Shown: piece by piece, positions 22,264-63,413 of the stretch
Layout: the number at the start of each line of letters is the position of its first letter
Numbering within the stretch: the first letter of the stretch is position 1
DNA from: Dictyostelium discoideum
Lineage: Eukaryota
Assembly: GCA_000004695.1 (NCBI GenBank)
Contig: CM000155.2
Coordinates: 192,001 to 256,000 of the forward strand
DNA: 64,000 bases
Direction: 5' to 3'
Notes under the pieces: generated by a model
Told to the model about the DNA's origin: nothing
Databases searched by the model: none
The model's input: only the letters and a program-made list of their open reading frames with translations
Translations under genes and position numbers: made by a program

Positions 22264-25200
22264 TTAATACCAACTACACCAACCAACATACATATTACAT
22301 AAATGTTTTGGATTAGTAGCTTCTTGAATTAAATGATTAACTTGACCTTCAATTGAAAGTTGTAAACCAACTGTTGGAATGCCTTGTAATGTTGCACTAA
22401 TTCTTTTTAAAATTTCAACTGCTTGATCATTTTCAACTTCACCAAAATGAGTATTATTATTATTATTAGAGTTTTGATTTTTCTTGTCAAATAATATAAG
22501 AAAAGGATCATAGATAAAGTTTTCCAAAACACGAAGTAAAACCTCTTTATTTGATCTAAGAACTCTTAATGTATTTTCACAAACTGTTTTGAATGTACCT
22601 TCAACACCTAAAACTCCGAAAACATCTACCATATTACGAGTTAAACGGAATGGTACTCTCTCTGGAACAGTAAAAGTTTCACCTTTCCAAAACAAGCAAT
22701 TGTAATCGATATGAACACATTCACCAGTAATTGAATCCAATAGAATATTTTCAGTATGACGATCACCCAAACCCAATACACTACCAACCATTGACATGAT
22801 GGCACAAGATCGAGCAAATGCATCTCTTGCATCTAACCAAGCAGAAGGCTCAGGGAAATTTGTAATGAAATGTTTATGTAGTACTGGTGGGAAGAATCTA
22901 TTGAAATCTTCAAAGAGATCTAGATAATGTTTCTCCTTTTTAGCGTTTACCATTTGATTAAATCTATCGATGCCTATAGTATCCATAGTTTCATAAATAC
23001 CACCAAGAATGGAACGTAAGGTGGCAGTATTTGAAACCCATTCAATGATACCACTCTCTTCGTTGAATGGAATTACAGTGTAAGTTCTAATCTTTAGATT
23101 ACGTTTTCTACAAGCTGGATCCTTCTTTATGAGCTTATTGACCATTGTATTGAATTCCATAACACGTTGATCTTTTCTAAGGTCATCATTTGGTTTGAGG
23201 AGGAAACTGTATCTATTACCTTGACGATCGTTAACATTGATTTTCTTTGGGCCTTGAAGGGATGGCATAATATCGATTTGATCTTCGAATGAACCAATCA
23301 AAGGTAATGAACCAAATGCTGGATAGGATTTATCAGGTTTACCATTTGGTGGTAAACTAACATTTAAAGAGGATTGAAGTGGTAAGATAACGGTTAGATC
23401 TTTCATTTCATAGAGTTTCTTAAAGATTTCAGACATTTTTATACTATATCTTTTATTGGCTTTCTTTGGATGATTTGAAACTGCGAGCAATTGTGCACAC
23501 AATAGAATGGTTTCATCTTGATTCTTTTTGATTGCATCAGTTTTTCTGGCTTTTTCTAAACAAGTACGTGCTCTTTGTTTTCTAATGGATGAACTGGAAC
23601 GATATTGCATCATCATGATCCAAATCGATTGTTTTGGAAACTCTATCATTGTCCTTATAATGATTTTTTCCAATATTAACCATGTATCAGTGTTTTTATG
23701 ACAGATTCTTGAGGCAACCTGTGATAAAAACATTAACCAATTTGAGGCAGGTACATCCAACTCTAGTTTTGACATTGCTTTCTTTATGGATTCCAATGAA
23801 TCAGAGGTAACTTTTGTTGATTTCTCTGGAATTTTAAAATCACTAAATATTACACCAAGTTCACACCATAATGCTATAATTCTAGTTAATGTTTGATAAA
23901 TATAAGAATGGCCTAATATAACCGCTTGACCATAGGATGAAATGATATTTCTAGTATAATCGACATAGGAAACACTATCTAATGGAGGTGAATTTGGTGA
24001 ATTTTGATTAACCCTCTTAAGATTTGATAAAAGTGAATCATAATATCTACCTAGGAAAAAGAAACCTTTCTCCCATTCAAAAGCTGTTGCACTTGAATAA
24101 TGTTCAGTTAGCTCTGAATGATGAGTAATACCACATTGTTGTTTCCATCTTGCAATTAATAAATGAGTTTTTGAAATTATAAATAAATCTTCTTGTGGTA
24201 AACCTAATAATGATAATTTACTACCATTATTAATATTAATATTACTACTACTATTATTACTACTGTTATTATTACTATTAATTATTGGATTCCATTTATT
24301 TTTTAATTCTTGAGTTAAAATATTAATTGCTTCAAAACTATGACCTTGATTCCACATTAATTTTGCATGTTCAATGAAATAGAATTTATCTTGTTGTGAT
24401 GGTGTTGGTTTTAAAATTGCATTTAAAGAGAGTTCAAACTTTTTATCATGTCTTGCATACTTTCCAATTTTCATCCAACAATCAATAACTTCTTTCGAGA
24501 ATGAACCAATCTCTAAGATCTCTCTACGAACACTAAGAATACTTTCTCTAAGTTTAAATGATGGTTGAATAATTTTTAATCTATCATCCCATTCAGATAA
24601 TAATTTCTTTAACATTTGTTGTTTTTGAACATTATTATTATTACTATTGTTATTATTACCAATATTATTATTATTATTTGTAATTGTAACATTTTCAATT
24701 GGAATTACATTATAATGAATTAATTTATAACTTTGTTCAATTTCTTCAAGGATATGTGCTTGAATTAAGTAAGGATAACATCTTTGATAAGAATCTAAAG
24801 CTGAACCATTTAAAAGTTGAGCTAAAAATGATCTACATTGGAATAGGTTTGAATTAAATTCTTTTTCTTGTTTTTTAACCAATGAATATAAAATTCTACC
24901 CAAATATGCTTCAAAATTTGGTTCATGTGTTTGAGATAATGTTTCATCAATTTTATCCCAATGTGATAATCTCCAAGATGATTGAATTTTAATGGTACCA
25001 AGTTTAGATTGATCTTTATTAGTTAACCATGGTTCTTGTTTTAAACCTTCAATTTGAAGTAATAATGATTCATGTTGACCTAAATTGAATAGACAATTGA
25101 GTGCTCCAATTCTAAGATCCATATTAATTGGTGATCTTTCCAATGCAGTATTATAATAAAGTAATGCATCACCCCAAAATCCTTGACTTTCCAATTCAAC

Positions 25201-25386
25201 TATCTTTTCTTCATTCGATGGTGAACCAACTCTCTTATGAGATAAACCTATTAAACCATCAATATCATCCATTTCATGATAAATCTTTTGTAATAATTGT
25301 AAATTATTATTTAATGCTAATTCTCTAGCACTTGCCATTGAAGCTGGTTGTGATGAATTTAATATTGGAATTTGTTGTTGTTGAAC

Positions 25387-25429
<43 letters not shown>

Positions 25430-27848
25430 GGTTGTTGTTGTTGAAGTTGTTGTTGATATTGTAAATTTTGTTGTTGCATATTTAATTGTAGATTTAATTG
25501 ATGTTGTTGTTGTTGTTGTTTTAATATTTGACTAGTTTCATTTCTAATTAATGATTCCATATAACTTAATGATGTAGATAATGCACCACATCTATAGGAA
25601 GCAAAAGCTAAAATTTTCTCTGGAATACCATTTAAGAAACGTTCAATTACGACAACATCTGGTGGAGATTCCAACTTTTTTGATTTTCCTTTTTGAGAGG
25701 CTGTTCTTTGTTGTTGAGTTAGAAAATATTTTCTCTTTCTAACATCGATCCAATTGTTTAGACTATTGATTACATGAAAAATGATTTGAGTACAAATTTG
25801 ACCATTATCAGTACTAAGATCTGTATTATTATTTAATACCTCTAAAATTTCATTCTTTATTGATTGAATATCACTCTCTCTACCATATTCAATGATATTT
25901 AAAATTACCAATGGTAAAAGATAATGACAAATCTTTAAATCATCCTTTATAATACCACGACATGCCATAAATATTGAATCTAAATCATTATTTGCTGAAC
26001 CTGGTGAACCTTTAGTTTTAAATAATAAATCAGATAACCAACTTGTTATCCATTTTTTATAAGTCATATTTGAACCATAAAAACATGATGATGAACCAGA
26101 TGAACTAACACCATTACCACCACCATTACCATTACCACCACCACCACCAACTAAATTATTATTCTTTTTTGAAAATAAAGGTAACATATATTCTGAAGAA
26201 TAATATGGTTTAATTATATCATTACATTCATTTGATAATTTCTCTGATAATTTTGTATCTTGACAACATTTTAAAATCTCTTGAATTGCATAACCTGCTC
26301 TATCTTGTGGAGTTGGATTACTTGGTGAAAGAACAAACTTTGCTAAATATTTCTCAATTAATTCTGCAGCGATTTGAACTTTATCCTTTTCAGCGGTTGA
26401 TTGATTTCTAAGACTAAAATCTAATTTCACAGGATCAATTGCACCCAATTCACCAAGACATGTTAAGAAATTTACACTTAACTTTAAGTATGGATCTCTA
26501 CAACCAATTAATAAAGATTTAACCAAATCATTTATTAAAATTGGATCAGAATCTAATTGAATCATTTCATGAATTATAGATTTATTGGCTGATAATAATT
26601 CTTTTAATTTATTGGTTGACATAAGTTTAACTTCAATCGATTCATTTGAGAATAATTCCATCAATTGTTTAATTTGAGTAGTTAAATTTGCTGAACTAGA
26701 TTCTAACTCTTGAATGTAAGGTTTTAAGACTGTATATTCCTTTGGTAGGAAAGGAATAGTTTTAAAATAAGGTTTTAAAATAGTACGATTCTTTATAATT
26801 AAATAATCGAAAATTAATAAAGATTTCTCTGGATATGATTGTACAAATGGTAAAATTGAGAATACAATTTGATTTAATATTGGACCAATACTATCTAATT
26901 TTAATAATTGAATAAAAGTAAACCAAGCATCGATTGCAATCTCCTCCATTGGCGTTTTAATTGCTAATCTTAAGAATGCCATAATCTTTGGTCTGAATAA
27001 ATCCACAGATTGACCCATTAAACCCAATAAACGATGAAAACTGGTCATCATTGTTAACTTTTCTTGAGTACTCTTTTGTTTATTTGTCATTATCATGGTA
27101 AAGAAATTCATTGATCCTAAAAATTCCTTAATTAAGAATTTGTCAAATGTCATATCACCACCAACGAATTGACTAACATAATCTAAAGCTTTCTTTGCTT
27201 GTTGACCATCACCATTGGCCAAATTCAATATAAGCGAATTGATAAATGATTTTGGTAAATTTGAAACCACTGCATCTTGATTGAAATCTGCAAAACGACA
27301 AAAGCATATAATGCAACTTGTTAAATTCTCCACACTGGTAGCATGAATGAAAATATATTCAAATATTAATCCCATTAAATAATCTTGACCACAAAGTTCT
27401 TTTAAATCTTTTAATTCATCTTTTAAACAATTTAAAATATTATTTGAACTCTTGAAAATTAATACTGGTATAACAGTTGGTAAAGATGAAATTAAAAATT
27501 GATTCAACCCTATCCCTAAAAAGTATCTACATAATTCCACCAATGATTGTCTATTTGTATAAAGATTTTCAATAATTCTTGGATTTATATATTGTGCCAT
27601 ATTTGTCATCATTAAAGTTTTTGGTGTTTGATTTAATTTCTTTGCAATAAATTCAATGGTTTCAATTGAATTAACTTTAATTGTTGTTTGTCTTGATAAA
27701 TTTTCAATTAAAGTACAAAATATAATTAAAATAAAATCATTTGAATAAATTTTATCTTGCCATGTTATTGAATCATTATTTGTTGTCGTTGTATTATTAT
27801 TATTTAGTTGATTATTATGTGATGAACTTGAAGATGATAATTGTTGAA

Positions 27849-27882
<34 letters not shown>

Positions 27883-28707
27883 TAATGAATTATTTAAAAT
27901 ATATTGATCTTTTTGTGATTGAATTATTAAATTTGCAATTTTTTTTAATAAATATAAAATTGAAAATAAAATATCCTCCCTTTCACTTTTATTTGAATAA
28001 AGTGGATGTAATTGATAAAAGAAATTTGTTAAAACATCTGGATTAGTTTGATAATTAAATTTTAACATTGAAATTATAATCTTTATAACTGATTTTCTAA
28101 TGATATCATTTCTATTTGCCGATAAAAGATTTAAATAAAATTTAAAGAAACCTTCAATCGATGTTGATGGTAATGGTGAATTATGAATTAAAATATTTTT
28201 AAATGTGAATCCCAAATAAAAATATTTTATCGAAGAATCATGATCACCATCACCACCACCACTAGTCATCATTGAAGTATCATTATCCAAATCGGAATTT
28301 TGACCGTCATGATATTCCAAAAATAATTTTGAAAATAAAATATTCTCTTTATATTTTGATTCTAAAATTAAAATTTGTTCATTATTATTCGTTTTATCAA
28401 TATCCATTATTGTTTCATCTTTTTCATTATTATTATTATTATTGTTTGATGGTGGTGATTTATGAATTGGTCTATAAGGTTTTAAATTTAAATCAACAAT
28501 ATTTGTATTTAATACTGATGAAACTGTAACACATTTACAAGAACATAATGGTAACCAAACACCTTCAAAAATACCACAACCAACTAAATTATTATAATTT
28601 GATAGTAATGGGTCGATTTTAATTCTATTATTTTTAGTATCAGTAAATCTTTGGAGCAGAATAGAGTTATTTATTATTATAAGGTTATTTTGTTCTTGAA
28701 TATTATT

Positions 28708-28752
<45 letters not shown>

Positions 28753-29270
28753 ATTGTTGTTGTTATTGTTTAAGTAAGTACATCTATTTAGATTCTCAAA
28801 GAAACAATAACCTTCCTTCAAACAATATAAACTACCACCAATTACACCAACCATATCTAAAATTAAACTTGTAACATTTAAATCTATTATTGACTCTAAT
28901 CTCTTTATAATGTCATTACACATGATTTGATATTGATGATTGGTTGAAATGGTTGCTAAAGAATTAACTGGTGACATATTTGAAATGAATACTGGCAATA
29001 ATTTTATAACATTAATTAAATAATTTTGATCTAATTTTGATAAATATTTTTCGCCCTTATTATTATTATTATTATTACGTTGTTGTTGTTGACTAGCACT
29101 TATAGCTTGTGAATCACCCATTGAAGATGATGTATCACTTGATATATTAACTAAAATCGGACTACTTGATACGATAGTTGGATTATTTTTATTTGATTCA
29201 CCAACATTTTGTTGACTTGAACTTTTATCTGTTGTTGTAGCTGTAGTTGTTGTTGTGTTTGTAGTAGCAG

Positions 29271-29323
<53 letters not shown>

Positions 29324-29895
29324 GAGTTCACCAATGATTTATTTAATGATAAAGTTGATAAAACAATATCAACTCTTTCATTAACATAATATGAGCATGG
29401 TAACCAACAAACTAAAGAGAAAGAGATCACTTTAATTGAATTAATTATTTCAGCATACTTTGTTAAATTAAATATTGTTGAATGATTTGTTACGATTGTT
29501 GATAATTTAAATAATGATTCTAATAATTGTTCATTTGATTTTAATGTTGAAATTCTATGTAAATATTCAATCTCTACAGTACTTGATAATTTTAATAAAT
29601 CCATTAAAACCTCTAAAAATAAATTATCAAGTTCTTTTTGCTATAATTGAATAATTATTAAAAATTAATATGAAATAAATATATTTATAAAAAAAAAAAA
29701 AAAAGTGGTAGGGATATTATTTTAAAAAAAAAACACTTACTTGAATTATTAAATCATAAATAAAATTTAAATTATTTATGAATAAATTAACTAATTCTTT
29801 TACTGAAACTCTATTATGATGATTTTTACAAATTTTAAAAATGAGATGAAGTGCTTTTAAATAAATTCTAATTGATTTTTGTTGTTCTATTGTTG

Positions 29896-34724: not shown

Positions 34725-36889
<2,165 letters not shown>

Positions 36890-43527: not shown

Positions 43528-44143
43528 ATGGAAGCACTTATACTTTTAAGTTCACAACAAAGTGGGTCAATTAAAAATAATTGTGCATCAACAAGTGATA
43601 TTGAAAATGTAGAGGATGACGATAGTATTGTTATAGTTTCAGATTCACCAACGTCGTCACCAGTAACATTATCAACCTCATCACCAGTATCATCATCTTC
43701 ATCATCCTCACCAATTTCAACATCTGTAGTACCACCAACATCATCATCATCCAATAAAAAAGCCAATGGATTATTTTCATTGATTGCAACTGAATTAAGT
43801 CAACTCGATCGTTCATCTCCATCTTCATCTCCAAATACACCAAAAACTCCAAAAACTCCAAAAACTCCAAAAACACCAAAGAAAACATCACCAGATTCAA
43901 ATGAAGCCAACCAAGAGGTACCAAAACAAAAAGAAGTTTTTGAACATACACCAACTACAACTTCCACCTCTACAACTCCAATAAAACCTGTAAAAGATCC
44001 AAAAGAAAAAGAAAAAGATTTAGAAAATGATAGAAAAAGACAATCATTCATGTTACATTGGAGATTTAAACCTTCAACTGCTAATAATACAAATAATAAT
44101 AATAATATTAATAATAATAACAATATAAATAGTAGTAGTAGTA

Positions 44144-44227
<84 letters not shown>

Positions 44228-44271
44228 TTAATAATAGTAGTAATAATAATAGTAATTGTAATAATAACAAC

Positions 44272-44311
<40 letters not shown>

Positions 44312-44588
44312 GTAATAATACACAACCTTTATCACCTACAACAGCATCTCAACAAGCAAATTCACAACAAAACCAACAATCATCACCTACTTCATCACAA
44401 ACTAATGAAACTAATGGTAATCCACCCGAGTTTAATAGAGGAAGAAGAAATTCAACCCCATCATTACAAAACTTTGTTTCTCATTGGAAATTTGATCCAA
44501 AAGCACATCAAAAACAACAAATACTTCAACAACATCAACAACAATTACTTTTACAACAACAAGAACAACAATTACAACAACAATTATT

Positions 44589-44679
<91 letters not shown>

Positions 44680-45131
44680 CTACAACAACAACAACAACAA
44701 CAACTACAACAACAACAACAACAGCAACAACAACAACAGCAACAATATTTTAGACCAATTTCTCCTGAACATATATATGAATCACCAAATGAAAATAATA
44801 ATGGTGGTTCATTCCAAAAACCAAATACTCATTTCCATCCATATAGTAGAGGCCCATTGGGATTGAATCTAAAAGGTGTGTCTGGCTCCCCCTCTCATTC
44901 TCCTAGAGTTTCCCAATCTCCAAGAGTTCCATCACATCCACACTCTGCTGATCAATCACCCTTCCACACACCAAGACAAACTGAGAGAAGATTGTCTCTA
45001 CCAAGTGTTCCATCTTATCAAGCAGCATATCAATCATACCAACAACAACATACTCAACAACAAACTACAATTCAACAACAACAAAACCAACAACATCAAT
45101 ATCAACAACAATATCAACAATTACAACAATT

Positions 45132-45211
<80 letters not shown>

Positions 45212-46039
45212 CGTCATCGCCACCATCACCACCATCGCCACAATCTCAACCACAAAATTCATCATCACCTCGTCAACCATCACAAACTCCACAATTTTAT
45301 ATACCAATATCAAATATACACCGTCATCATCAACAAATTCATTCACCACATTTATCTCCACATCCACCACATTCACCTCATATGCCACAATCTCCCCATA
45401 TGCCTCATTCTCCACATCTTATGCCTCACTCACCACATTCGCCTCATATGCCACATTCGCCTCATATGCCTCATTCACCTCATATGCCACATTCACCTCA
45501 TATGCCACACTCACCCCATATGCCACATTCGCCTCATCATATGCCACACTCACCTCACTATGGATCATCACCAAATTTAAATGGTGGAAAGGGTAGTAAT
45601 AACTTTTTACAATCAATACCGGAAGTTCCTTATGGTAATAATCTAACAAATTTAAATGGTAGTAGCGTAGATTCCTATTCAAATTCCTCTCCAACTCCTC
45701 AATCTCCACCTTTTTCACCTCATCATCAATCAACCATCAAACCTTGTATTATAACACCATCACCACGTTTATTAAAAACTCATAATGAAAACTATATGAG
45801 TTCACCAAGACAACCTTTGTCACCTCATAATCAACATGTATATTTAAGCCATTCACCATCTCCACCCCCATCATCATCACCACATGAACATTGTAATTAT
45901 ATTGATAAAAATGATGAGTATTATAGTAATAATAATAATAATAATAATTATAATAATAATAATAATAATAATAATGAAAATTGTAATCACTACCATAATA
46001 ATTCTTCATCTCATAATTATCAAACAAATAATAATTATT

Positions 46040-46100
<61 letters not shown>

Positions 46101-46287
46101 CAATAACAATATTATTAATAATAATATTATAAAAGAAGATAAGCTTCCATCAATGAGAGACTTACTTAGCCATTTAAATATAAATCATCAAGACGGTCCT
46201 AATAGTGCAAGTAGTACACCAAGATTACCAACGGATCATATTAATAATATAGATGAAAAATCAAAATCTAAATTATTATTCTTTTAA
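43528..46287 (+). CDS. Low-complexity N/Q/S-rich protein with (KTP)n, two HW(R/K)F motifs and about 12 tandem SPH(M/L)PH hexapeptide repeats, 919 aa
   Basis: Continuous ORF. It contains PKTPKTPKTPKTPK around 43840..43880, SFMLHWRFKPS and NFVSHWKFDPK, long CAA-encoded poly-Q, and SPHMPHSPHMPHSPH... encoded by imperfect 18-bp repeats around 45330..45560. No recognisable catalytic domain. Confidence 0.6.
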
Positions 46288-47657: not shown

Positions 47658-50499
47658 ATGTTTGGTGGTCAATTTGGTTCATTCGGTGCAAAACCAGCTG
47701 CAACTGCATCACCATTCGGTGCTCCATCCGCTGCACCAACAACTTCATTGTTTGGTTCAACAGCTCCATCATCAGGTAAGTTTTTTTTTTTAAAATAAAA
47801 AATCATAAAACAAATATATAAATTAAATATTAATACAAAGTTTCAATTTCAAATAATATTATTTTAGGATTTGGAGGATTTGGATCAACAGCACAGACAA
47901 CACAACCAACAACAGGTGGATTTGGAGGATTTGGTGGATTTGGAGGAGCAACAACTACACAGCAACCAGCAGCAAGTCCATTTGGTGGTGGAGGAACAGG
48001 TGGTAGTGGATTATTTGGATCATCAGCACAAACAACAACACAGCAACCAGGTGCAAGTCCATTTGGTGGTGGATTTGGTACAACTACTACAACAACTACA
48101 CAGCAACCAGGCGCAAGTCCATTTGGCGGAACAGGTGGTGGATTATTTGGATCATCAGCACAAACAACAACACAACAACAAGGTGCAAGTCCATTTGGTG
48201 GATTTGGAGGAGCAACTACAACACAACCATCATTATTATCAGGTGCCACTGGTGGTTTTGGTGGTTTTGGTGGTTCTACAACTTCAGGTACTCAATTAGG
48301 TGGTGGTGGTGGTGCAACAAGTGGTGCATTTGGTGGTTCATCAAGTCCATTTGGTGGTAGTGGTGGTGCAACCACATCAAGTCCATTTGGTGGTGGTGGT
48401 GGTAGTTTCGGAGCAACCACTCAAAAACAATATGGAACACCAATTCCATATCAACAAACTACAATTGAAGGTAATACATTCGTTTCAATCTCTGCTATGC
48501 CACAATATAACGATAGATCATTTGAGGAATTAAGATTTGAAGATATCACTCATAGAAAGGATATAGTTTATAAGACAGGTGGTGGCAGTGGTGGTGGTAA
48601 CTCATTGTTTGGTTCAACTCCAACCACTCAACCTTCATCACCATTTGGTGCACAAACAACAACTCAAACCACTGGAGGTTTATTCGGTGGTCAAACTACT
48701 ACCTCACCATTTGGTGGTCAAACTTCAGCCACTCCAGGTTCATCATTATTTGGTTCAACACAACCAACTCAACAACAAACTAGTGGTGGTTTATTTGGTT
48801 CAGTACAACCAACCCAACAACAAGCTGGTGGTGGTTTATTCGGTTCAATGCCAAGCACAGGTGGTTCATCATTATTTGGTTCAACACAACCAACTCAACA
48901 ACAAACTGGTGGTGGTTTGTTTGGTGCAACCCAATCAAATCAACCAACCAATTCATTGTTTGGTGCATCAGCACGCATCAGCACAACCAACACAATCATT
49001 ATTTGGTGGACAAACTCAAACAACCACTTCACCATTTGGTAGTCAAACCTCCACACCATTTGGTCAACCTCAACAAACTAATACTGGAAGTGGATTATTC
49101 GGTGCTCAACAAACTCAACAAACTAATACTGGAGGTGGATTATTCGGTGCCCAACCAACTCAACAAACTAGTGGTGGTGGATTATTCGGTACTCAACCAA
49201 CCTCTGGAACTGGGTTGTTTGGTACGTCACCAACAGCAGGAGGTACAGGTTTATTTGGCACAACACAACCAACATCCCAAGGTACAGGTTTATTTGGTAC
49301 AACACAACCAACAACTCAAGGTACCGGTTTATTTGGTACATCACCAACCTCTGGTACAGGTTTATTTGGTTCAACACCAACCTCTGGTACAGGTTTATTT
49401 GGCTCAACCCCAACATCTGGTACAGGTTTATTTGGTTCAGCTCAACCACCACAAAATCAACAATCTCAAACTTCACTCTTTGGTAATACAGGTACAGGTG
49501 CAACCAACACTGGCACTGGTCTATTTGGTTCAGCTCAACCATCATCAAACCCAGGTGGTGGTTTATTTGGTTCAGCACAACCATCAACTACTACAGGTGG
49601 TCTTTTCGGATCAAACCAACCAACAGCACAACCAACAACTTCATTATTTGGAAATACCACTGGTTCAGTTGGTGGTTTGGGTGCAACACCAAACATAACC
49701 AGTGGATTATTTGGTTCAAACCCAGCACAAACTGGTGGATTATTTGGTTCAACACAACCAACCACCCAAACTTCACTCTTTGGAAATACAGGATCAACTG
49801 GTGGTTTAGGTGCACAAAATGGTGGTGGATTATTTGGTAATCTTTCACAACCAACCGCAACTGCTGGTCAAGGATTATCAGGTGGATTATTTGGTAATCT
49901 TTCACAACCTACTGCAACCGCTGGTCAAGGTTTATCAAGTGGTGGATTGTTTGGTAATACATTATTAGGTCAACCAAGTACACAGGGTTTATCAAGTGCC
50001 CTTCCAACATTGGGTTTAGGTTTAATGGGAGGTCAACCACAACAAACTCAACAACTTCCACAAGGCTCATTGATGTTACAACAAACTCAACAACCACTTC
50101 AACAACAACCACTCCAACAACAACAACAACCACTCCAACAATCAACCATCCAATTAAATAATCAAATCAATTCCGCTTCACCTTATTTCCCAATTTCATC
50201 ACCAGCACCATTTGCAACATTTGTTAAGGATTTAACATCAACTTCAAAAGTTGTTTCACCACCATCTTACACTCAAAGATCCTTATCACATCATGGTTAT
50301 ATTCCAAAATCAACCACTAAATTAGTACCAAGAAGAGGCCCAAACAATGTAGATCTAGGTTTTTCAGTTATACAAAATCAAAATGGTTTATTCCCAATTG
50401 ATAAATTTATTACTAAACATTCAAAATCTTTAAATATTAATACTACAAATGAAACTGAAGATACTTTAAGATCATTAAATACAAAGAGTTCTTCATTAT

Positions 50500-50536
<37 letters not shown>

Positions 50537-51667
50537 TAGAAATGTTAATACAAATGTTAACGATTATCAAAATAATGGATTACCATCTTCTTCACTTTAT
50601 AATAGTAATATTAATCAATTAAGTAACAACAACAATAATAATAATAATATTTATAATAATAACAATAATAATAATATTAACAACAATAATAACAATAATA
50701 ATATTTCAACTCAATTTAATTTAAGAAATAATCAATCATCATCTGATAATCTTAATAATGATAAATCTTTATCATCCTCTTCATCAAATAAATCACAACA
50801 ACAACAACAAAAAGAACAAAAAGAAGAACAACCACCAAAACCAATTAAAGAAAAAGAATTTATAAATCCAAATGCACCAAAATTAACAAGAGATGGTTAT
50901 CAATGTGTCCCATCAATTAAAGAATTATCAAAGAAAACTGATAAGGAATTATCATCAGTTCAAGGTTTTACAATTTCAAGAGATGGTTGTGGTTCAATTT
51001 ATTTCCCTGGTTCAACAAATTTGGTTGCATTAGATTTAGATGATATCGTTGATATTGAACCAAGAGAAGTATCAGTTTATAAGGATGAAGAAACTAAACC
51101 AGAGATTGGATATGGTTTGAATCGTGATGCCGTTGTTACATTGGAGAATTGTTGGCCAAAGAATAAAAATGGTGAAGTAGTTAAAGAGGATGGTACCATT
51201 TTAGATAAATATGAAAATGCCTTAAAGAAAGTTTCTGCTAAATCTGATTGTGGTTTCGTTTCTTATTCAAGATCAAATGGTACTTGGGTATTCACTGTTA
51301 AACATTTTAGTAAATATTCAGCACCAGATTTTGATGAAGATGATCAACAAATGCAACAACAAACTCAACAAAAACAACAACAAACTCAACCATCAAAAGT
51401 TACATTTCAACAACCATCAACCAAATTGACTAAACCAAAATTCACAGCAAATCTCGATAATTTTGACTCTGATTCTGAAACAAGTTCAGGTGTAAGTATT
51501 TTAGATTTTATTTAAAAAAAAAAAAATCATTATTTACATTCTTGTACTTTGTATTCTCGTTACTATAATAACAATAAAATCAACAATAGTAATAATAATA
51601 ATAATAATTTCCCCCCGCGCAGTAATATTTTCAATAAACCCCCAAAAAAAAAAAAAAAAAAAAAAAA

Positions 51668-51737
<70 letters not shown>

Positions 51738-51880
51738 TTTTATAATATAATAATTTTTAAAATTTATAAATAAACACTCTTTTTTTTTTTAAAAAAAAAA
51801 AAAAATAAACCCTTCTTTTATTTTATTTCATATTTTTTTAATTTTATTTTTTTTTAATTATTTCAAATATATTAACAAAT

Positions 51881-51922
<42 letters not shown>

Positions 51923-54409
51923 GATGAAAATCAAGATGAAATGGTTCCACAAAAGAAAACACCATTTATTAAAAGAGTATCAAATAGAGAGTCAGGATTA
52001 TTTGATACACCATCAGTTGTACCAATGTCTGAAAAAATTGAAACAACACCATCAAAGATTGCAAGAGTATCGGAACCAACATCTCAATCGAGTAGAATGA
52101 GTAACAACGCATTAAAGTTTTCAACATTTAATCCACAACAACAACAACTACAATCATCAAGATTTAAATCTACTGGTTTATCAATCCTTTCAAATCCAGT
52201 TAAAAATTTGATTCAATCAGATGTTAACAATGAACAATCAATGTTTTCCAATACCACCACTACCAGTACCACTAGAATTCAACCATTACCATCACAACAA
52301 CACTTAGTACAACCAATACCGACTACAATTTCATTAAATAAAAATTATTTTTCAAAGGTTAGAATTGATCCACAAGTTTATGATCGTATTGTACCAAAAG
52401 AAGAATCAATTACCAATCAATATAGAATGAAAAATGAACGTTTAAATCATAGTACTCAAGATGTATCATTATTTATGAGAAGATCATTTAGAGTTGGTTG
52501 GGCACCTGGTGGTAAATTAATTTCAATCACAAAGAGCTCCTTTAAGAATTTATTGATTAAAAAGTTACCAACCGATACAAAGGAGGATAAAAAAGAATCA
52601 ATCATCAAATTCTTAAAGAATCATCATTCACATAGCAGTTTAGTACCAGAGAATTTGAAATCAATTGGTTGGTTCTCAATTTCAAATGTTCAAGAACAAA
52701 TTGAATCACAATTAACCCTAAATGTTCCATCAAGTCAATCGGTTTACTATAATAGAATTTGGAGTTTAATTTCAAATCTTTGGGGTAACGTTTTAAAAGG
52801 CAATGGTAGTAAATATATAAACACCAACTACTCTGAAGATACCATTAGAAAGTTAAATCTCAATCAATGGTTAAAGGATGTCATTGCTCCATTGCTTAGA
52901 GATGAAATGGATTCTCTTAGAAAAAAGACAAATTCAAATTATCTCGAACAAATTTTCTCTTATTTATCTGCTAAACAAATTAAAGAAGCCTCTGATTTAG
53001 CAAATGAAAATAAAGATTTTAGATTGGCAACTATGATGTCTCAAATTTGGTCTTCAAGTGAATCTGGTAAAGAGTTGATTTTAAAGCAATTAACAACCTA
53101 TCATTCAAATGGTTCCGATGAATTTATAAATGAGAAAAGATTAGAAATTTTACATTTAATTGCTGGTAGTGTTAATAAGATTTATAAGAATCTAAATGAT
53201 TGGATTAGATGTTTTGCTGTTAGTTTTTGGTTTAAATATTCTTTGGAATATAGTATTGAAGATTCAGTTGAAAATTTTGAAAGATCTTTCAATGCTCATA
53301 GATCAGTTTATCCATTACCACCTTATTTAATTAAATCAACCTCCACCAATAGTAAACAAATTGAAGAACAACAACATTATTATGATATTTGTTTCTTATT
53401 ATTAAAGTTATTTGCTGTAAATCGTGGTTCATCACATTTTGATAAGTTTAAGAATATTTTTTATCCAGAGAATATTGGTCAAGATTTATTGGATTATCAT
53501 TTATCTTGGAATTTATATACCGTTTTAAAATCAATTCCATCATTAAACAAACAACCAGATCTTGTAAATGCAAGTAACCTTCATAGTTCTTTTGCTTTAC
53601 AACTTGAAAGATTAGGTCTATGGCAATGGTCAATCTATGTTTTACTTCATACTCCAGACCAATCCAATCATGTTAGAGAAGAAGCTGTCAAATCATTGAT
53701 CGCTAGAGCTGCACCAGTTATTACATCAGAAGATAGAGTGTTCCTAACTACAAAATTACATATTCCAGAGATTTGGATCGATGAAGCTAAAGCATGGTAC
53801 TCTGGTTACGATTGTAATAATGATATTTATGATCAAATCGATGCTCTCTTCAAGTCATACCAATACACAAAGATTCACGATATCATTTTCTCAAATATTG
53901 GTCCAAACTATATCATTCAAAAGAGATATCATTCACTCAAAGATTTACTCATTAGATTGGAGCCTCACTCTTCTTTTATCTCCACTTGGAGATATGGTGG
54001 TTCCATCTTTTTAGAATTTGCCGATATTTGTATTCAATACAAAGAGATACTTTCTCAACTCTCCAATACTGCAGAGGAAATTCAACGTACCAAATATTAT
54101 GTTAACCTTAAAGATATTACCACTAGAATCGTTAATATCTTATCTGATATTTCAAAAATCACTCAATCCTCTGAAATTAAAAATACTAGCGCCTCATACA
54201 AACAATCTCTTTCATTTATGTCTGAAGCTCTCATCACTAAAGCTTCTCTTTTAAGAGATCTACCTGAAAGTATTGTAAAATTGGTTTCAACAAATAATTT
54301 AGTTTCAACTTTAAATTCTTTGCCATTAACTCAAGATTATAGATCTAAAAATTTAGAATCTTTAACTGATCAAATTCAAGATACTTTATTAAATTCAATT
54401 TATCAATAA
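47658..54409 (+). CDS. Nucleoporin Nup98-Nup96 precursor (FG/GLFG repeats, GLEBS motif, autoproteolytic domain with HF|SKY site, then Nup96): join(47658..47775,47868..51491,51923..54409), with a +1 frameshift at 48965..48984
   Basis: Exon 1 reads MFGGQFGSFGAKPAATASPFGAPSAAPTTSLFGSTAPSS(G) and ends at a GTAAGT donor. Exon 2 holds FG/GLFG repeats, the GLEBS-like SISAMPQYNDRSFEELRFEDI (versus human CITAMKEYESKSLEELRLEDY), then the Nup98 autoproteolytic domain ...GFTISRDGCGSIYFPGSTNLVALDLDDIVDI...GTWVFTVKHFSKY with HF|SKY at 51303..51317. Donor GGT|GTAAGT at 51491/51492. After a t(n)ag acceptor, exon 3 reads DENQDEMVPQKK...SFRVGWAPGG...DLANENKDFRLATMMSQIWSS...DLLDYHLSWNLYTVLKS and aligns to human Nup96. 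The exon-2 frame is broken by a perfect tandem copy of gcatcagcac, which is why the track shows two overlapping ORFs (48497..49042 and 48579..51515). Confidence 0.85.
51662..51737. repeat. (ATA)n microsatellite in the Nup98-96 intron, flanked by a long poly-T
   Basis: The sequence reads ataataataata... directly. Confidence 0.85.
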
Positions 54410-54725
54410 AAAAAAAAATAAATAAATAAAAATTAAAATTAATTTTAAAAAAAAAAAAAAAAATTAATCAAATTTAAGTTATTATAAATTAAAGTCTTTT
54501 TTTTAAACTATAAAATAATTAATAATATTATTAATTTTTTTTTTTTCTTATAATTAATAGTATTATTAATTTTTAATAGAATAAAAAAAAAAGTAAAATA
54601 AACAAATTCAAAGATTTTTTTTTTTTTTATAAAATATATAGATTTATTTAAAAAAATTTTAAATTAAATTTAAAAAACATAAAATATATTTTGTAATGGA
54701 ATTGAAATTTAAAATTTCAAACTAT

Positions 54726-56655
54726 CTAATGGAAGAAAGCTAAGATGAAGAGTGAAAGGATAGCAACTACCAATTTAGACATTTCAATACTTGAAGCACT
54801 ATTACCTGCAGCTGGAGTTTCAGTAACATTAACAACTGGGATAGCTGGGATACAACCTGGTGGACAAGTGGCTGGTGGAGCAGTTGGTTGTTCAGTTGGT
54901 GGTGAAGTTTCTGGGAGATCTATTTGAAAAAAAAAAAAAAAAAAAGGATTAGTATGAAAAAAAAAAAAAATTTAGTAATAAAGTATTTGATTATAACTCC
55001 ACCTTTCGATGAAGAGGATGAGAGTTTGTTATTTTGTGAAGAAGATGAGGGAGATGAAGAAGATGATGGAGATGAAGAAGATGAAGAAGATGATGGAGAT
55101 GAAGAAGATGATGAAGAGATAGAAGTAGAAGATAAAGAAGAAATATTATTTAAAATTGGTTGTGAAGATGATATTGGTTTTATAGAAGTAATATTTGATT
55201 GTTGAATATAGGTTAAAGTATAATTATTTGTTGTGAAATTTTGAGTTATATTTAAAGAAGAAAGTGTATTGATGATTGTTGTAAAATTTTTTGGTGAAGA
55301 AATTGTAAAATTTAAAGTAAACATACTTGTTGATGGATTAGTTTCACAGACAGTATCGACATTGATATCAAAGAATGGATTTGTAAGAGCAGCATCAACA
55401 TAATTTAACCAGACAGAGAGACCAAAGTTACCATTTTTACCATTAGCACCTTTACCCCATTGGAGATACATATTATCTTGATCACCTGTAATTGTAACGA
55501 CAGTACCATCATTTCTAGTACATGATGAACCTGAAACATTAACGGTATAGTAAGCCCAAGTATTTGGATCAATTGAACCACCACCAGAAACGTAAGCAGA
55601 GTTCATTAATTCTAATTTTGGTTGGTAATTAGCAGATGGAAGGGCTGGGCTAAATCTTAAGTCACAGTTTACAGTGATTGATGAATCTGAAATTGAAGTG
55701 AAACCAGCACCAAGACGAAGGTTACCATTGGTTTGATCAATTGAAATGGTGTTGACAGTTCCTGAGGAGGTATCAAATCTTTGTTGATTACCGAAAACTG
55801 TTGAAACTTGATCGACGTAAAGAGCTTGATCGTTTTGTTGATCGGTTAAAGATTTATCAATTGAAGCTTTGGAGATTGTGTAGGTATTGGATACACAATC
55901 GAATGTTGAACTACAACCAAGATTGATGTTAATATCAACGACTTCCATTTCACCATTACCAGATTGAATACTTACTGAACCATCGGTAGCTTTGAATTGG
56001 AACCAACCAGAAGCACCATTTTGAAGATTTTTACCATTGGCACCAACACCAACTTGGAGAGCAGTATTTGGATTTTCAGACATTGTAACAACGGTATTTG
56101 GATTTGTTAAACTAACCATTTTAGTATTATCTGGAAGAATTTGATAGAAAGACCATGTACTTGGGTCAACTGTACCACCATTGGATGTATATGCACCAGC
56201 TTGTAACTCTCTCTTGACATCACTTGGAGTAGTAGTTCTAACGAAAGCAGCACGTAAACTAAATTTATCAGTGAGTGATGAATTGGCTGGTGTCAATGTA
56301 CCAGTTAAAACTAAATTATCCCCACCATTGCTTTGAACAACACCATTTGAAACGAAATTATAATTGTTGGCAATTTGAATTTGATTACCTAAATTATTAT
56401 TAAAGGTTAATGCATCACCACCAGTGGTTGGACCAAAAGTTGAATCAAGTTGTGCTGAACTTGCATCTATTTAAAATAATAAATAAAAAAAAAAAATAAA
56501 AAATAAAAAAAATTTTAATATATTTATTTTTTTTTTTATTTATTTATTATTATTAATTTTATATTATATTTTTAAAACTTACCATTAACTGTACACTGTG
56601 AATATGCTGATCCTGCTACAGTAAGAGCAACTAATAATACGGAAAGAACTCTCAT
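54726..56655 (-). CDS. Secreted Ser-rich GPI-anchored surface protein with two tandem homologous beta-rich domains: complement(join(54726..54919,55003..56466,56583..56655))
   Basis: Exon 1 is a signal peptide, MRVLSVLLVALTVAGSAYSQCTVN(G), ending at a GTAAGT donor. Exon 2 follows a tttaaatag acceptor: DASSAQLDSTFGPTTGG... with duplicated blocks AYTSNGGTVDPSTWSFYQI...LQVGVGANGKNLQNGASGWFQF and AYVSGGGSIDPNTWAYYTV...LQWGKGANGKNGNFGLSVWLNY, then poly-Ser. The apparent tail ...[17 protein letters not shown] is poly-A/T read-through. A phase-1 donor AAAG|GTGGAG lies at 55003, and the caaatag acceptor gives exon 3 (D)LPETSPPTEQPTAPPATCPPGCIPAIPVVNVTETPAAGNSASSIEMSKLVVAILSLFILAFFH*, a Pro/Thr stalk plus GPI-type hydrophobic signal. 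Exon 3 is in frame only with that donor. Confidence 0.6.
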
Positions 56656-60740: not shown

Positions 60741-61891
60741 TTAAAAATTATTTTTTTTCTATATAAATTTAAAAACATATTAATTCCAGAATTTTTTTTT
60801 TTTTATATAAAATTAGATTGAATTTACTACTTCAGTTTATAAAGGATTATTAAGTCCAGAAGATTTCAATGACAAAAGTGTTTTTATTGCGCCAATTAAT
60901 GTTTCACCACCAATTGATGATACTTCAATTAGTCATTCATTATATTCTGATGGTAGAAGAAATTCTGTCTCAAGTGTTTCAAGTGAACTTTCAGAGTATT
61001 CAAATATTCAAGAAACGTCCTCGTCCATTGGTTTTGGTAATAATAATAATGGTAATAAAAAAGATCATAAAAGAAGTAATAGTAATGGTAGTAATAACAG
61101 TAGAGGAAGTAATAGTAGTAAAGGTAGTAATGGTAGTAATGGTATTAATGGTGGAAATCAAAAAAAGATATCACCCACTTCTCGTCACCAAAGGTCAACA
61201 AGTGATCCATTTGAATTTAATTTTGAATCAACTACACCAGTTACATTTTCAAGGAAAAGTTTAAGAAATTCTACGACACTAGACGACGATCCATTAAATA
61301 GCCCATCCGATCAACCAATCTTTTCATCAGATGAAGAAGTTAAAGAAAGTAATAATCTAAATAACAATAATATTTCACCAACAAATTATTCAAATCGCTC
61401 AATATCACCAACAAATTCAACTCAATCATTAGAAACATTTGATAAAGATATTGAAAATCAACCAACATTAGCAGAAACACCAACAAAGAGTAAAAAGAAA
61501 ATGTTTTCATTCTCTAGTAAAAAGAAATCAAAAGCTTCACCTGAAAGCAATCAAAGAAAAAATAGTAAACCTGAAAATTTAAATGTTTCAAAGATTAAAG
61601 GTGATGAAATTAGTACTGAAGAATTCTCATCTGGTAGCGAAAGTGGTGGTTCACCAAAACCTGGTAAATGGAAAAGAAGACATTCAACACCAAATGTTGG
61701 TTTCTTTTCAATTAAATCATTCAAAGATAAAGAAAAACAAAAAGAAAAAGAAAAGGAAAAAGAAAAAGAAAAAAAACTTCAATCAGATTTTTATAATACA
61801 AATCAAACACTTGATAATTTAACAATTAATGAAACTAATGAAAATGAATTTGAAGGTCACCATAATGGTCTTGATAATAATAATAATAGTA

Positions 61892-61927
<36 letters not shown>

Positions 61928-63413
61928 GTAGTATGAATAATGAAAATTCAAGTAAAAATAATAAAAAATCAAAGAATAAAAAGCAATCATTTGATTCAAA
62001 TTCATCAACATCACCAACAAATAAACAAGAAAAATCAAAAGATAGAAAGAATTCAAAAGAAAAGAATTTTATAAATAAATTAACGACTTCATTAAATCCA
62101 AATAGTAGTAATAATAATAATAATAATAACAATATTAATAATAGTAATGGTAGTGATTCTAAAGATACATTACAATCATCATTGGTTACAAGACATTTAG
62201 ATGAAAAATTAAAATTCTTAATAGATGATATGATTGTTTCCAAAAGACCAGAATATGTTGGCAACATTCCAATCTCTGCAATTGCAATTTATAAATGTAT
62301 TTTCGAATGGAAAGAATTATCACCAAATAATAATAAATGTTTAACAGAAATGATTGAAACATTTGATTTAATGATAAAGAAAAAGAATATTGGTAAAGAA
62401 AAGTCATTCTATTGGTTATCAAATTCATTTACATTAGGTTTCCTACTTGAGAAATCATATGAAAACCAAAAAATATCACGTTCAGAATTTAACACATCTC
62501 CAAGTATTAATTTCTCTCATAATACTGAAAGCCAAAATCTAAAACTATTGATCAATATAGTTCAAGGATATCAAAGATCATTTTGGTCATTATATTGGGA
62601 TAGTGTTAAATTGGAACTATCAAAGGTAATGGATAGATTAACTGAACAATTAAGAGTAAAGGAATTTGAAACCACACCAATCTTTTTAAATTTCCTTTTA
62701 TCAACTTTAGAATTTTTAGAGAAAAGGTTACCATTTCAATCAGTTTGGCCAAATATTTTTAAACAAATCTTTTTCTATGTCTCTGGTTATTTAGTTAATA
62801 AATTTTTAACTGATAATTCTTTAGCAACTACAAACAATGCTGTAAATACAAAATTATTCATTTCATCTTTATCTCAATGGTTTCAAGAGAATAAAGAATT
62901 AAATTATTTTTATTATTTTAAGTAATGTATTAAAAAAAAATAATAATAATTATAATAATAATAATAATTATAATAATAATAATAATTTACTAATTTATTA
63001 ATAATTTTTTTTTTTTAAAAAAAAAAAAAAATGGAAATAGAATGGAAATGAGCACACTTGTTCAAATATTAGATGTATTGGTAATTGATAAAGATTCATT
63101 AAAAGATGAATTAGTCAGAAAAGAGATTTGCCCATCATTAACAACTACACAATTAGCAATTGTTTTATGTAGATTTAATCCAGAAAATTCATCAGAAGAA
63201 GTTGATCCAGCAGTAATAAAATATTTACAAGACGAAGGAATCAGAAAACATGACATTCAAAATATTACAACCAATTTAGATAAAATCTATGAATTACCTG
63301 ATAAACCAGAACCTTCAAGAAGTATCATTGATACAAAGATACCATTAAATATATTCCCTCAATCAAATCAAAAACTCTTTAAATTTTTAACAAAACCAAC
63401 TACAATTTATTAA
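60157..63413 (+). CDS. NT-C2 (EEIG1/EHBP1-type N-terminal C2) domain protein with C-terminal DIL (dilute/myosin-V cargo-binding-like) domain, about 970 aa: join(60157..60444,60551..60691,60817..62921,63041..63413)
   Basis: Exon 1 reads MPLKIFNKKGGNNQYTVKLKIDLISNVSYAYPKDTEFEIEWKRGVHRGVL...LIVNLRK and ends at a GTAAAT donor. Exon 2 follows an aattag acceptor: VESKKKTTKIATLQIDLSHMANKLESDKEKQY...EFKPY, ending at GTAAGT. Exon 3 follows an aattag acceptor: IEFTTSVYKGLLSPEDF..., a Ser/Asn-rich linker, then FYWLSNSFTLGFLLEKSY and ...FKQIFFYVSGYLVNKFLTDNSL...SQWFQENKE. These match the myosin-V DIL motifs FLWLSNTCRLLHCLKQYS and [21 protein letters not shown]...SQLEEWLRDKNL. Donor AA|GTAATG at 62921. 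Exon 4 follows an aaatag acceptor: (K)MEMSTLVQILDVLVIDKDSLKDELVRKEICPSLTTTQLAIVLCRFNPENSSEEVDPAVIKYLQ. Confidence 0.7.

Follow-up and report, generated by a model that had tools for sequence, protein, structure and literature searches.

The 64,000-nucleotide (nt) stretch of Dictyostelium discoideum DNA analyzed here (GenBank assembly GCA_000004695.1, contig CM000155.2, positions 192,001 to 256,000 of the forward strand; hereafter the window, to whose numbering all coordinates of the gene refer) contains at 47658..54409 on the + strand what is, with near certainty, a single Nup98-Nup96 precursor gene. The gene itself is not new: it is annotated, has been published as DdNup220 (PMC4283134) and is deposited in the nuclear pore structure 9HCJ. 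Only one point is both new and useful, and it concerns the phenylalanine-glycine (FG) repeats of the gene, where the reading frame is broken at 48965..48984. Through this break, which is masked in the public models by a 67-nt "intron," the public protein is probably short by about 19–22 residues and two FG motifs. An earlier note on the same DNA had described a complete gene of three exons and made no mention of a frame break in the FG repeats. That completeness was not borne out, as the coding sequence (CDS) assembled with only two introns is 6229 nt long (6229 mod 3 = 1) and reaches a stop after residue 430. As written, the window cannot be read from the FG domain through to Nup96 without interruption, and the frame is open only after the removal of 1, 10, or 67 nt. 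We judge the interrupted frame to be a problem of sequence or annotation, not a biological departure from the Nup98-Nup96/Nup145 family.

The break is marked on the + strand by an exact 10-bp tandem (GCATCAGCAC twice), at which the reading shifts by +1 from window frame 2 to window frame 0. The FG repeats are read in frame 2 as far as ...NSLFGAS and in frame 0 from ASAQPTQSLFGG on. The same positions can equally be read as an in-frame 9-nt tandem (GCATCAGCA twice) with one extra C at 48974, and a single extra C looks like a 10-bp duplication because the following base is also C. The window sequence across the break is GCATCAGCACGCATCAGCAC, which with one C fewer becomes GCATCAGCAGCATCAGCACAACC. 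The 10-mer is the only GC-rich exact tandem duplication in the window with a unit that is not a multiple of three, the periods of all TRF arrays within the coding exons are divisible by three, and when the codons of the FG region were shuffled 2000 times, an exact 10-bp tandem arose in only 6 cases. The repeat junction makes a CGC codon that is otherwise absent from the 48 Arg codons of the gene (43 AGA and 5 CGT). Because of the +1 switch of frame, the list of open reading frames (ORFs) shows the gene in four pieces despite its two introns. The earlier note had seen this division into four, but the step from the second piece to the third is no intron; it is the frame change itself.

Three repairs restore the frame. 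Deletion of C 48974 gives a protein of 2075 amino acids (aa) that reads ...SLFGASAASAQPTQSLFGG..., deletion of one copy of GCATCAGCAC gives 2072 aa (222.4 kDa), and removal of 48915..48981 gives the 2053 aa of the public model. In our assessment, the break is probably a reference-sequence error or a lesion private to the clone or strain, with the 67-nt intron as an annotation artefact. Most simply, it consists of a genuine in-frame 9-nt tandem plus one extra C (48974), the alternative form being a 10-bp duplication. The real protein would be 2075 aa (or 2072 aa) long, not 2053 aa, and would have two more FG motifs.

The 67-nt "intron" implied by the public protein models lies at 48915..48981 (+) and has the ends GTTTGT...ATCAG. 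Aligned with the corrected model, chain U0 of 9HCJ is missing precisely the 19 residues GLFGATQSNQPTNSLFGAS, which appear as a clean gap; the eLife DdNup220 sequence also lacks them and reads ...QQQTGGAQPTQSLFGG. The public protein is in this respect different from the DNA, which encodes these 19 residues in frame upstream of the break. If the public four-exon model were right, the break would be genuine and the 67-nt GC-rich segment would be spliced in an exitron-like manner to give the 2053-aa protein. The GT...AG ends are present, removal of the segment restores the frame, and the spliced sequence is that of both the eLife 2015 supplement and PDB 9HCJ. Moreover, the gene is essential and the organism haploid, so that a real break would have to be overcome somehow for the protein to be expressed. 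The segment, however, differs from the two verified introns in composition, donor and acceptor. Its GC content is 43.3%, which compares with 43.5% in the flanking exon and with 9.8 and 10.4% in the two true introns; its donor is GTTTGT, not GTAAGT, and the T-tract is missing before the ATCAG acceptor. It also carries on the FG repeat in frame (GLFGATQSNQPTNSLFGAS) with two xLFG motifs, and the GT of its "donor" sits in an ordinary GGT-TTG codon pair of the type that encodes the Gly-Leu of GLFG, which occurs 24 times in the protein. A close dictyostelid relative has no intron at this place and keeps both motifs. Given these differences, splicing of the segment is unlikely, and the 67-nt "intron" is probably an annotation device that restores the frame, not a real intron. 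Two further candidates were rejected. An ancient, real 67-nt intron is at odds with a segment that codes FG repeats in frame and has no counterpart intron in the relative, and a tiny intron consisting of the 10-bp repeat itself would be far too short.

The relative was identified by an exhaustive, profile-free HMMER search of 1.84 billion representative proteins, which yielded a 2028-aa fused ortholog (P0170) encoded at locus L007 of assembly GCA_054859025.1. At the amino-acid level, the window product and this ortholog are 82% identical over the FG domain, 95% over the autoproteolytic domain (APD) and 94% over the C-terminal Nup96 domain, while the two genes are 69–82% identical at four-fold degenerate sites. 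As in the window, the first exon of the relative measures 118 nt, and the intron behind it, which is 105 nt long, agrees in position and phase. In contrast to the window gene, its FG repeats, GLEBS motif, linker and APD are encoded by one continuous exon (3224..6720 of L007) without a frame break or an intron, and the two FG motifs dropped from the public D. discoideum model are present in this exon. In global alignments to the ortholog, the one-base fix scored 8437, the 10-base fix 8422 and the public-like model 8371. Locally, the one-base fix aligned with the relative without any gap, LFGASAASAQPTQSLF of the window standing against LFGSTSGSTQPTTSLF of the relative. It should be noted that a word-index search missed this ortholog, which is roughly 90% identical and was recovered by the exhaustive search. 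When the FG/GLEBS segment served as the query of a homolog search, all that came back were unrelated FG nucleoporins, the word index being saturated by low-complexity repeats.

A genuine break could also be bypassed by +1 ribosomal frameshifting at GCA-CGC-A (candidate site GGTGCATCAGCACGCATCAGCACAA), with a hungry CGC codon in the A site, as at the GCG-AGU-U of yeast Ty3. The product would contain ...SLFGASAASAQPTQSLFGG... and would be the same as the one-base-deleted protein. That CGC is used for none of the other 48 Arg codons of the gene and that the product aligns gapless to the relative are both consistent with such a mechanism. The relative, however, has no break, which means that no programmed signal is conserved at the site; RNA folding downstream of the break revealed no significant structure (z = −1.69); the CGC codon is simply the product of the repeat junction; and the efficiency of frameshifting would cap the output of an abundant, essential protein. 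We therefore regard frameshifting as highly improbable. That the break is genuine in the living strain at all, with full-length Nup98-Nup96 made only through a 67-nt exitron born with the lesion or through +1 frameshifting at GCA-CGC-A, appears improbable to us. Were the break real, an essential nucleoporin would be reliant on recoding or exitron splicing, which would be unusual.

Several observations weigh against attributing the break to a sequence error or a private lesion. No independent DNA or RNA read across 48965..48984 was found by exact protein look-ups and contig scans, and the absence of the break from real cells is therefore not demonstrable. The public model is long-standing and is the basis of a recombinant protein and of a structure. 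A GT at 48915 and an AG at 48981 do exist, and 67 nt is possible as an intron length. In addition, an exact 10-bp tandem is an unusual shape for a base-calling error, though one extra C yields the same pattern. As to the searches, exact look-ups in the protein collection gave no match to the 2053-, 2072- and 1002-aa models, to the 430- and 181-aa truncated products, to two frame-0 ORFs ending at 51515 (starts 48579 and 50025) or to nine ORFs from the two strands in the vicinity of the FG region. When metagenome and bacterial-genome contigs were scanned for the pattern of the junction, both with the repeat and lacking it, 0 matches were obtained. The Logan contigs that were found (L001–L006) are genomic and unspliced and span exon 3 alone, with poly-T/poly-A at their borders. 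Public Illumina genomic read sets of D. discoideum AX4/AX2, such as SRR28564541-3 and SRR26869257/58/67, contain the locus. A search of the literature for Nup220 and for dictyBase frameshift notes returned nothing on the site at 48965..48984, and the methods of PMC4283134 are silent on whether the FG domain came from cDNA cloning or from synthesis.

The shortened public sequence (2053 aa, with a Nup98 part of 1164 aa) has been used in a recombinant FG-domain phase-separation study and in a structural model. An error has probably been propagated in this way, and the record is worth correcting. The effect on the published conclusions is small because the missing piece sits in the disordered barrier domain.

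The identity of the gene was examined by a profile search, in which the conceptual product of 47658..54409 (+) matched four Pfam families in canonical order. These were PF13634 (Nucleoporin_FG; 102.9 bits, spread over 5 stretches), PF21240 (Nup98_GLEBS; 24.2 bits, under the curated cut-off of 27), PF04096 (Nup98-96 autopeptidase S59; 151.3 bits, profile positions 2–147 of 148) and PF12110 (Nup96; 269.7 bits, a full-length match over positions 1–295 of 295). The earlier note had called a Nup98-Nup96 precursor gene from the sequence, and the call was correct: PF13634, PF04096 and PF12110 all matched, and the published gene is identical. PF04096, on whose presence the note had staked its call, is clearly there, and among the profiles matched only that for GLEBS stayed under its cut-off. 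The five diagnostic blocks that the note had listed (FG exon, GLEBS, GLFG/SLFG repeats, APD with the cleavage site, and Nup96 exon) were all found on the + strand in that order, GLEBS as a sub-threshold candidate, with coordinates exact or very near.

Exon 1 (47658..47775, 118 nt) comprises the ATG and the first FG motifs in 39 codons plus 1 nt, and its residues match those of 9HCJ_U0. It is followed by intron 1 (47776..47867), a 92-nt intron of phase 1 with the ends GTAAGT...TTTTAG and a GC content of 9.8%. The first part of exon 2 (47868..48973, window frame 2) encodes FG/GLFG repeats and the putative GLEBS motif; only its tail appears in the ORF list because there is no ATG, GTG or TTG upstream of 48497. 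The second part (48975..51491, window frame 0) encodes the remaining GLFG repeats, of which the final FG motif lies at 49950..49955, then a poly-Q/poly-N linker, the APD and the first 59 residues of Nup96. Altogether, 58 FG dipeptides are present in the conceptual product, including 24 GLFG, 9 SLFG and 10 SPFG, while the 2053-aa model, with the 67-nt gap applied, has exactly the published 56 FG motifs in residues 1–718.

The putative GLEBS (Rae1/Gle2-binding) core ISAMPQYNDRSFEELRFED is found at 48488..48544 (+), inside the stretch of about 48470..48560 where the earlier note had placed it. In keeping with its sub-threshold PF21240 score (24.2 bits against 27), the GLEBS peptide 3MMY_B aligns to "ITAMKEYESKSLEELRLED" at an E-value of only 0.31, with the core SxEELRxED kept. 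The APD (peptidase S59, PF04096) occupies 50892..51320 (+) and aligns with the human Nup98 APD 2Q5X at E = 1.6e-34 and with yeast Nup145N 3KEP at E = 1.1e-21. The cleavage motif HF|SKY is located at 51303..51317 (+), exactly as previously proposed, where it reads CAT TTT AGT AAA TAT with the predicted scissile bond between 51308 and 51309, and it aligns with the HFSKY of the vertebrate Nup98-Nup96 chains 7FIK_G and 7F60_C. The Nup96 domain PF12110 is encoded at 52946..53800 (+).

By analogy with other members of the family, one mRNA would be translated into a polyprotein of ~220 kDa, in which the peptidase-S59 domain is predicted to cut itself between the Phe and Ser of HF|SKY. Such a cleavage would free a GLFG-repeat, GLEBS-bearing Nup98, with predicted roles in the permeability barrier and in binding of transport receptors, and an 889-residue Nup96, a putative scaffold subunit of the Y-complex. 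The separate 9HCJ chains of 1164 and 889 residues fit self-cleavage at HF|S.

The human and other vertebrate NUP98-NUP96 proteins (PDB 2Q5X, 1KO6, 7R5J, 7F60) are arranged in the same way, from FG/GLFG repeats and GLEBS through an unstructured linker to the S59 autopeptidase, HF|SKY and Nup96; their APDs match at E-values of 1e-32 to 1e-36, and HFSKY and the acidic stretch behind it are aligned. Compared with them, the Dictyostelium protein has a longer, poly-N/poly-Q-rich linker and a GLEBS match below threshold, and its gene has only two real introns. In yeast, the precursor Nup145 (Nup145N/Nup145C; PDB 3KEP, 8TIE) cleaves itself to yield a GLFG nucleoporin and a subunit of the Y-complex, and its APD matches at E = 1e-21. 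Yeast differs in having the additional GLFG paralogs Nup100 and Nup116, both of which are without a Nup96 part.

The agreement with public D. discoideum records is close. There is 100% identity to chains U0 and M0 of PDB 9HCJ over the APD, the GLEBS region and residues 1–267 of the Nup96 part, and DdNup220 and these chains represent the same gene, with identical residues over exon 1, GLEBS, APD and Nup96. Chain U0, labeled "Nuclear pore complex protein Nup98-Nup96," has 1164 aa and ends in ...VKHF; chain M0 has 889 aa, begins with SKYSAP and is identical to the window product across the 51491/51923 junction. The N-terminal sequence of the window product matches the FG domain given for D. discoideum "Nup220" by Schmidt and Gorlich (2015; PMC4283134, Supplementary file 2). 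In the spliced model the Nup96 part has 889 residues, and "Nup96 (707-889)" in the preprint on the D. discoideum pore (Beck lab, 10.1101/2024.01.17.575985) implies the same length; the public model therefore shares the 51491/51923 junction with the model of the earlier note. No annotated D. discoideum protein of this gene turned up in a collection of 5.8 billion proteins, though the sequence is present in PDB.

Both splice junctions proposed earlier, 47775/47868 (phase 1) and 51491/51923 (phase 0), stand as given, with both introns beginning GTAAGT and ending TAG and with the frame kept. The second of them joins the APD exon to the downstream Nup96 exon, which had been predicted and was found at 51923..54409 (+); this exon 3 encodes the remainder of Nup96, ends with the stop TAA at 54407..54409 and contains the same ORF as the Logan genomic contigs L001–L006. 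The reading frame runs unbroken across 51491/51923 from the exon of the Nup98 APD to the Nup96 domain. This join is used in the public protein, M0 of 9HCJ being identical across it, and its position, phase and flanking coding sequence are conserved in the relative, where a Nup98/Nup96 intron of 319 nt lies at the homologous codon and has the same GTAAGT donor. It could still be imagined that the gene is truly disrupted, so that only a 430-residue FG/GLEBS fragment is made and Nup96 is expressed separately from an ATG at 51941, with the 431-nt AT-rich stretch as its promoter. The 822-aa ORF does have its own ATG 18 nt past the acceptor, and the 431 nt upstream resemble intergenic DNA in composition. 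Such an arrangement, however, would leave untranslated both the APD and the 59 Nup96 residues encoded ahead of the intron, despite their strong conservation (95% amino-acid identity in the APD, with in-frame indels only). In addition, the 18 nt that lead up to ATG 51941 are maintained as coding sequence (DENQDE versus EEENQDE in the relative, a 3-nt indel), and the GTAAGT donor and the phase of the intron are conserved as well. We therefore regard separate expression as highly improbable.

The last intron (51492..51922, +) is 431 nt long, of phase 0, with the ends GTAAGT...TTTTAG and a GC content of 10.4%. It contains A26, (AAT)29 and T38, together with a GC island at 51608..51622. The length of about 430 bp and the AT repeats with poly-T that had been noted earlier are confirmed. 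Introns of D. discoideum reportedly have a mean length of about 146 nt in the paper that described its genome. Measured against this mean, an intron of 431 nt is long but not extraordinary.

Three blocks of this intron (51492..51570, 51596..51630, and 51720..51780) are about 90–96% identical to the intron of the relative (L007 6721..7039), which exceeds the 69–82% identity at four-fold coding sites. The window and the relative agree in all of the first 22 bases of the intron, and both species therefore have the same read-through tail, ...SG-VSILDFI-stop, followed by an A-run. The GC island TTTCCCCCCGCGCAGTAATAT is conserved in the relative, too. The conserved blocks could mark a regulatory element or could reflect a Nup98-only isoform, which would, as in vertebrates, be generated by intron retention or intronic poly(A). 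Scanning the entire gene against Rfam, with the long intron included, yielded no match.

The relative also differs in having an extra 90-nt intron in the Nup96 domain (8296..8385 of L007; GTAAGT...ATATAG, GC 8.9%). This intron is precisely missing at ~53188 of the window, where the ORF is continuous, and represents an intron gain or loss between close species.

Within the FG domain, a 57-nt in-frame tandem duplication at 49824..49958 (2.3 copies, 89% matches) encodes GGLFGNLSQPTATAGQGLS twice and shows a recent expansion of the repeats. An imperfect (AAT/AAC)n tract of ~200 nt (50501..50703), located in the linker that connects the FG domain with the APD, codes for poly-Asn runs and probably breaks short-read assemblies of the gene. 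The Ala encoded at 52061..52063, which is residue 41 of the 822-aa ORF, is replaced by Val in one Logan contig (SRR28564541, P0121), while five other Logan contigs (P0169) agree exactly with the window; the difference is either a strain polymorphism or an assembly error.

The window resembles dictyostelid DNA in its GC content, which is 11–20% outside genes versus 30–44% in coding stretches, and in the poly-N and poly-Q runs of the latter. The ORFs neighboring the gene, 43528..46287 (+; 919 aa) and 54920..56296 (−; 458 aa), are without Pfam matches, and the latter ends in a long poly-Ser tail. The 3′ flank of the gene (54617..54968), which runs into the 3′ end of the 458-aa ORF, shows 89% DNA identity to the locus of the relative. 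Farther away, a 2446-aa ORF at 22264..29604 (−) represents an ATR-type checkpoint kinase gene with PI3_PI4_kinase (213.7 bits), FAT, UME, ATR HEAT and FATC domains. Two other ORFs, one at 34725..36203 (+) with a CorA-like Mg2+ transporter domain (59.7 bits) and one at 61501..62925 (+) with a DIL domain (30.6 bits), are each probably an exon of a larger gene.

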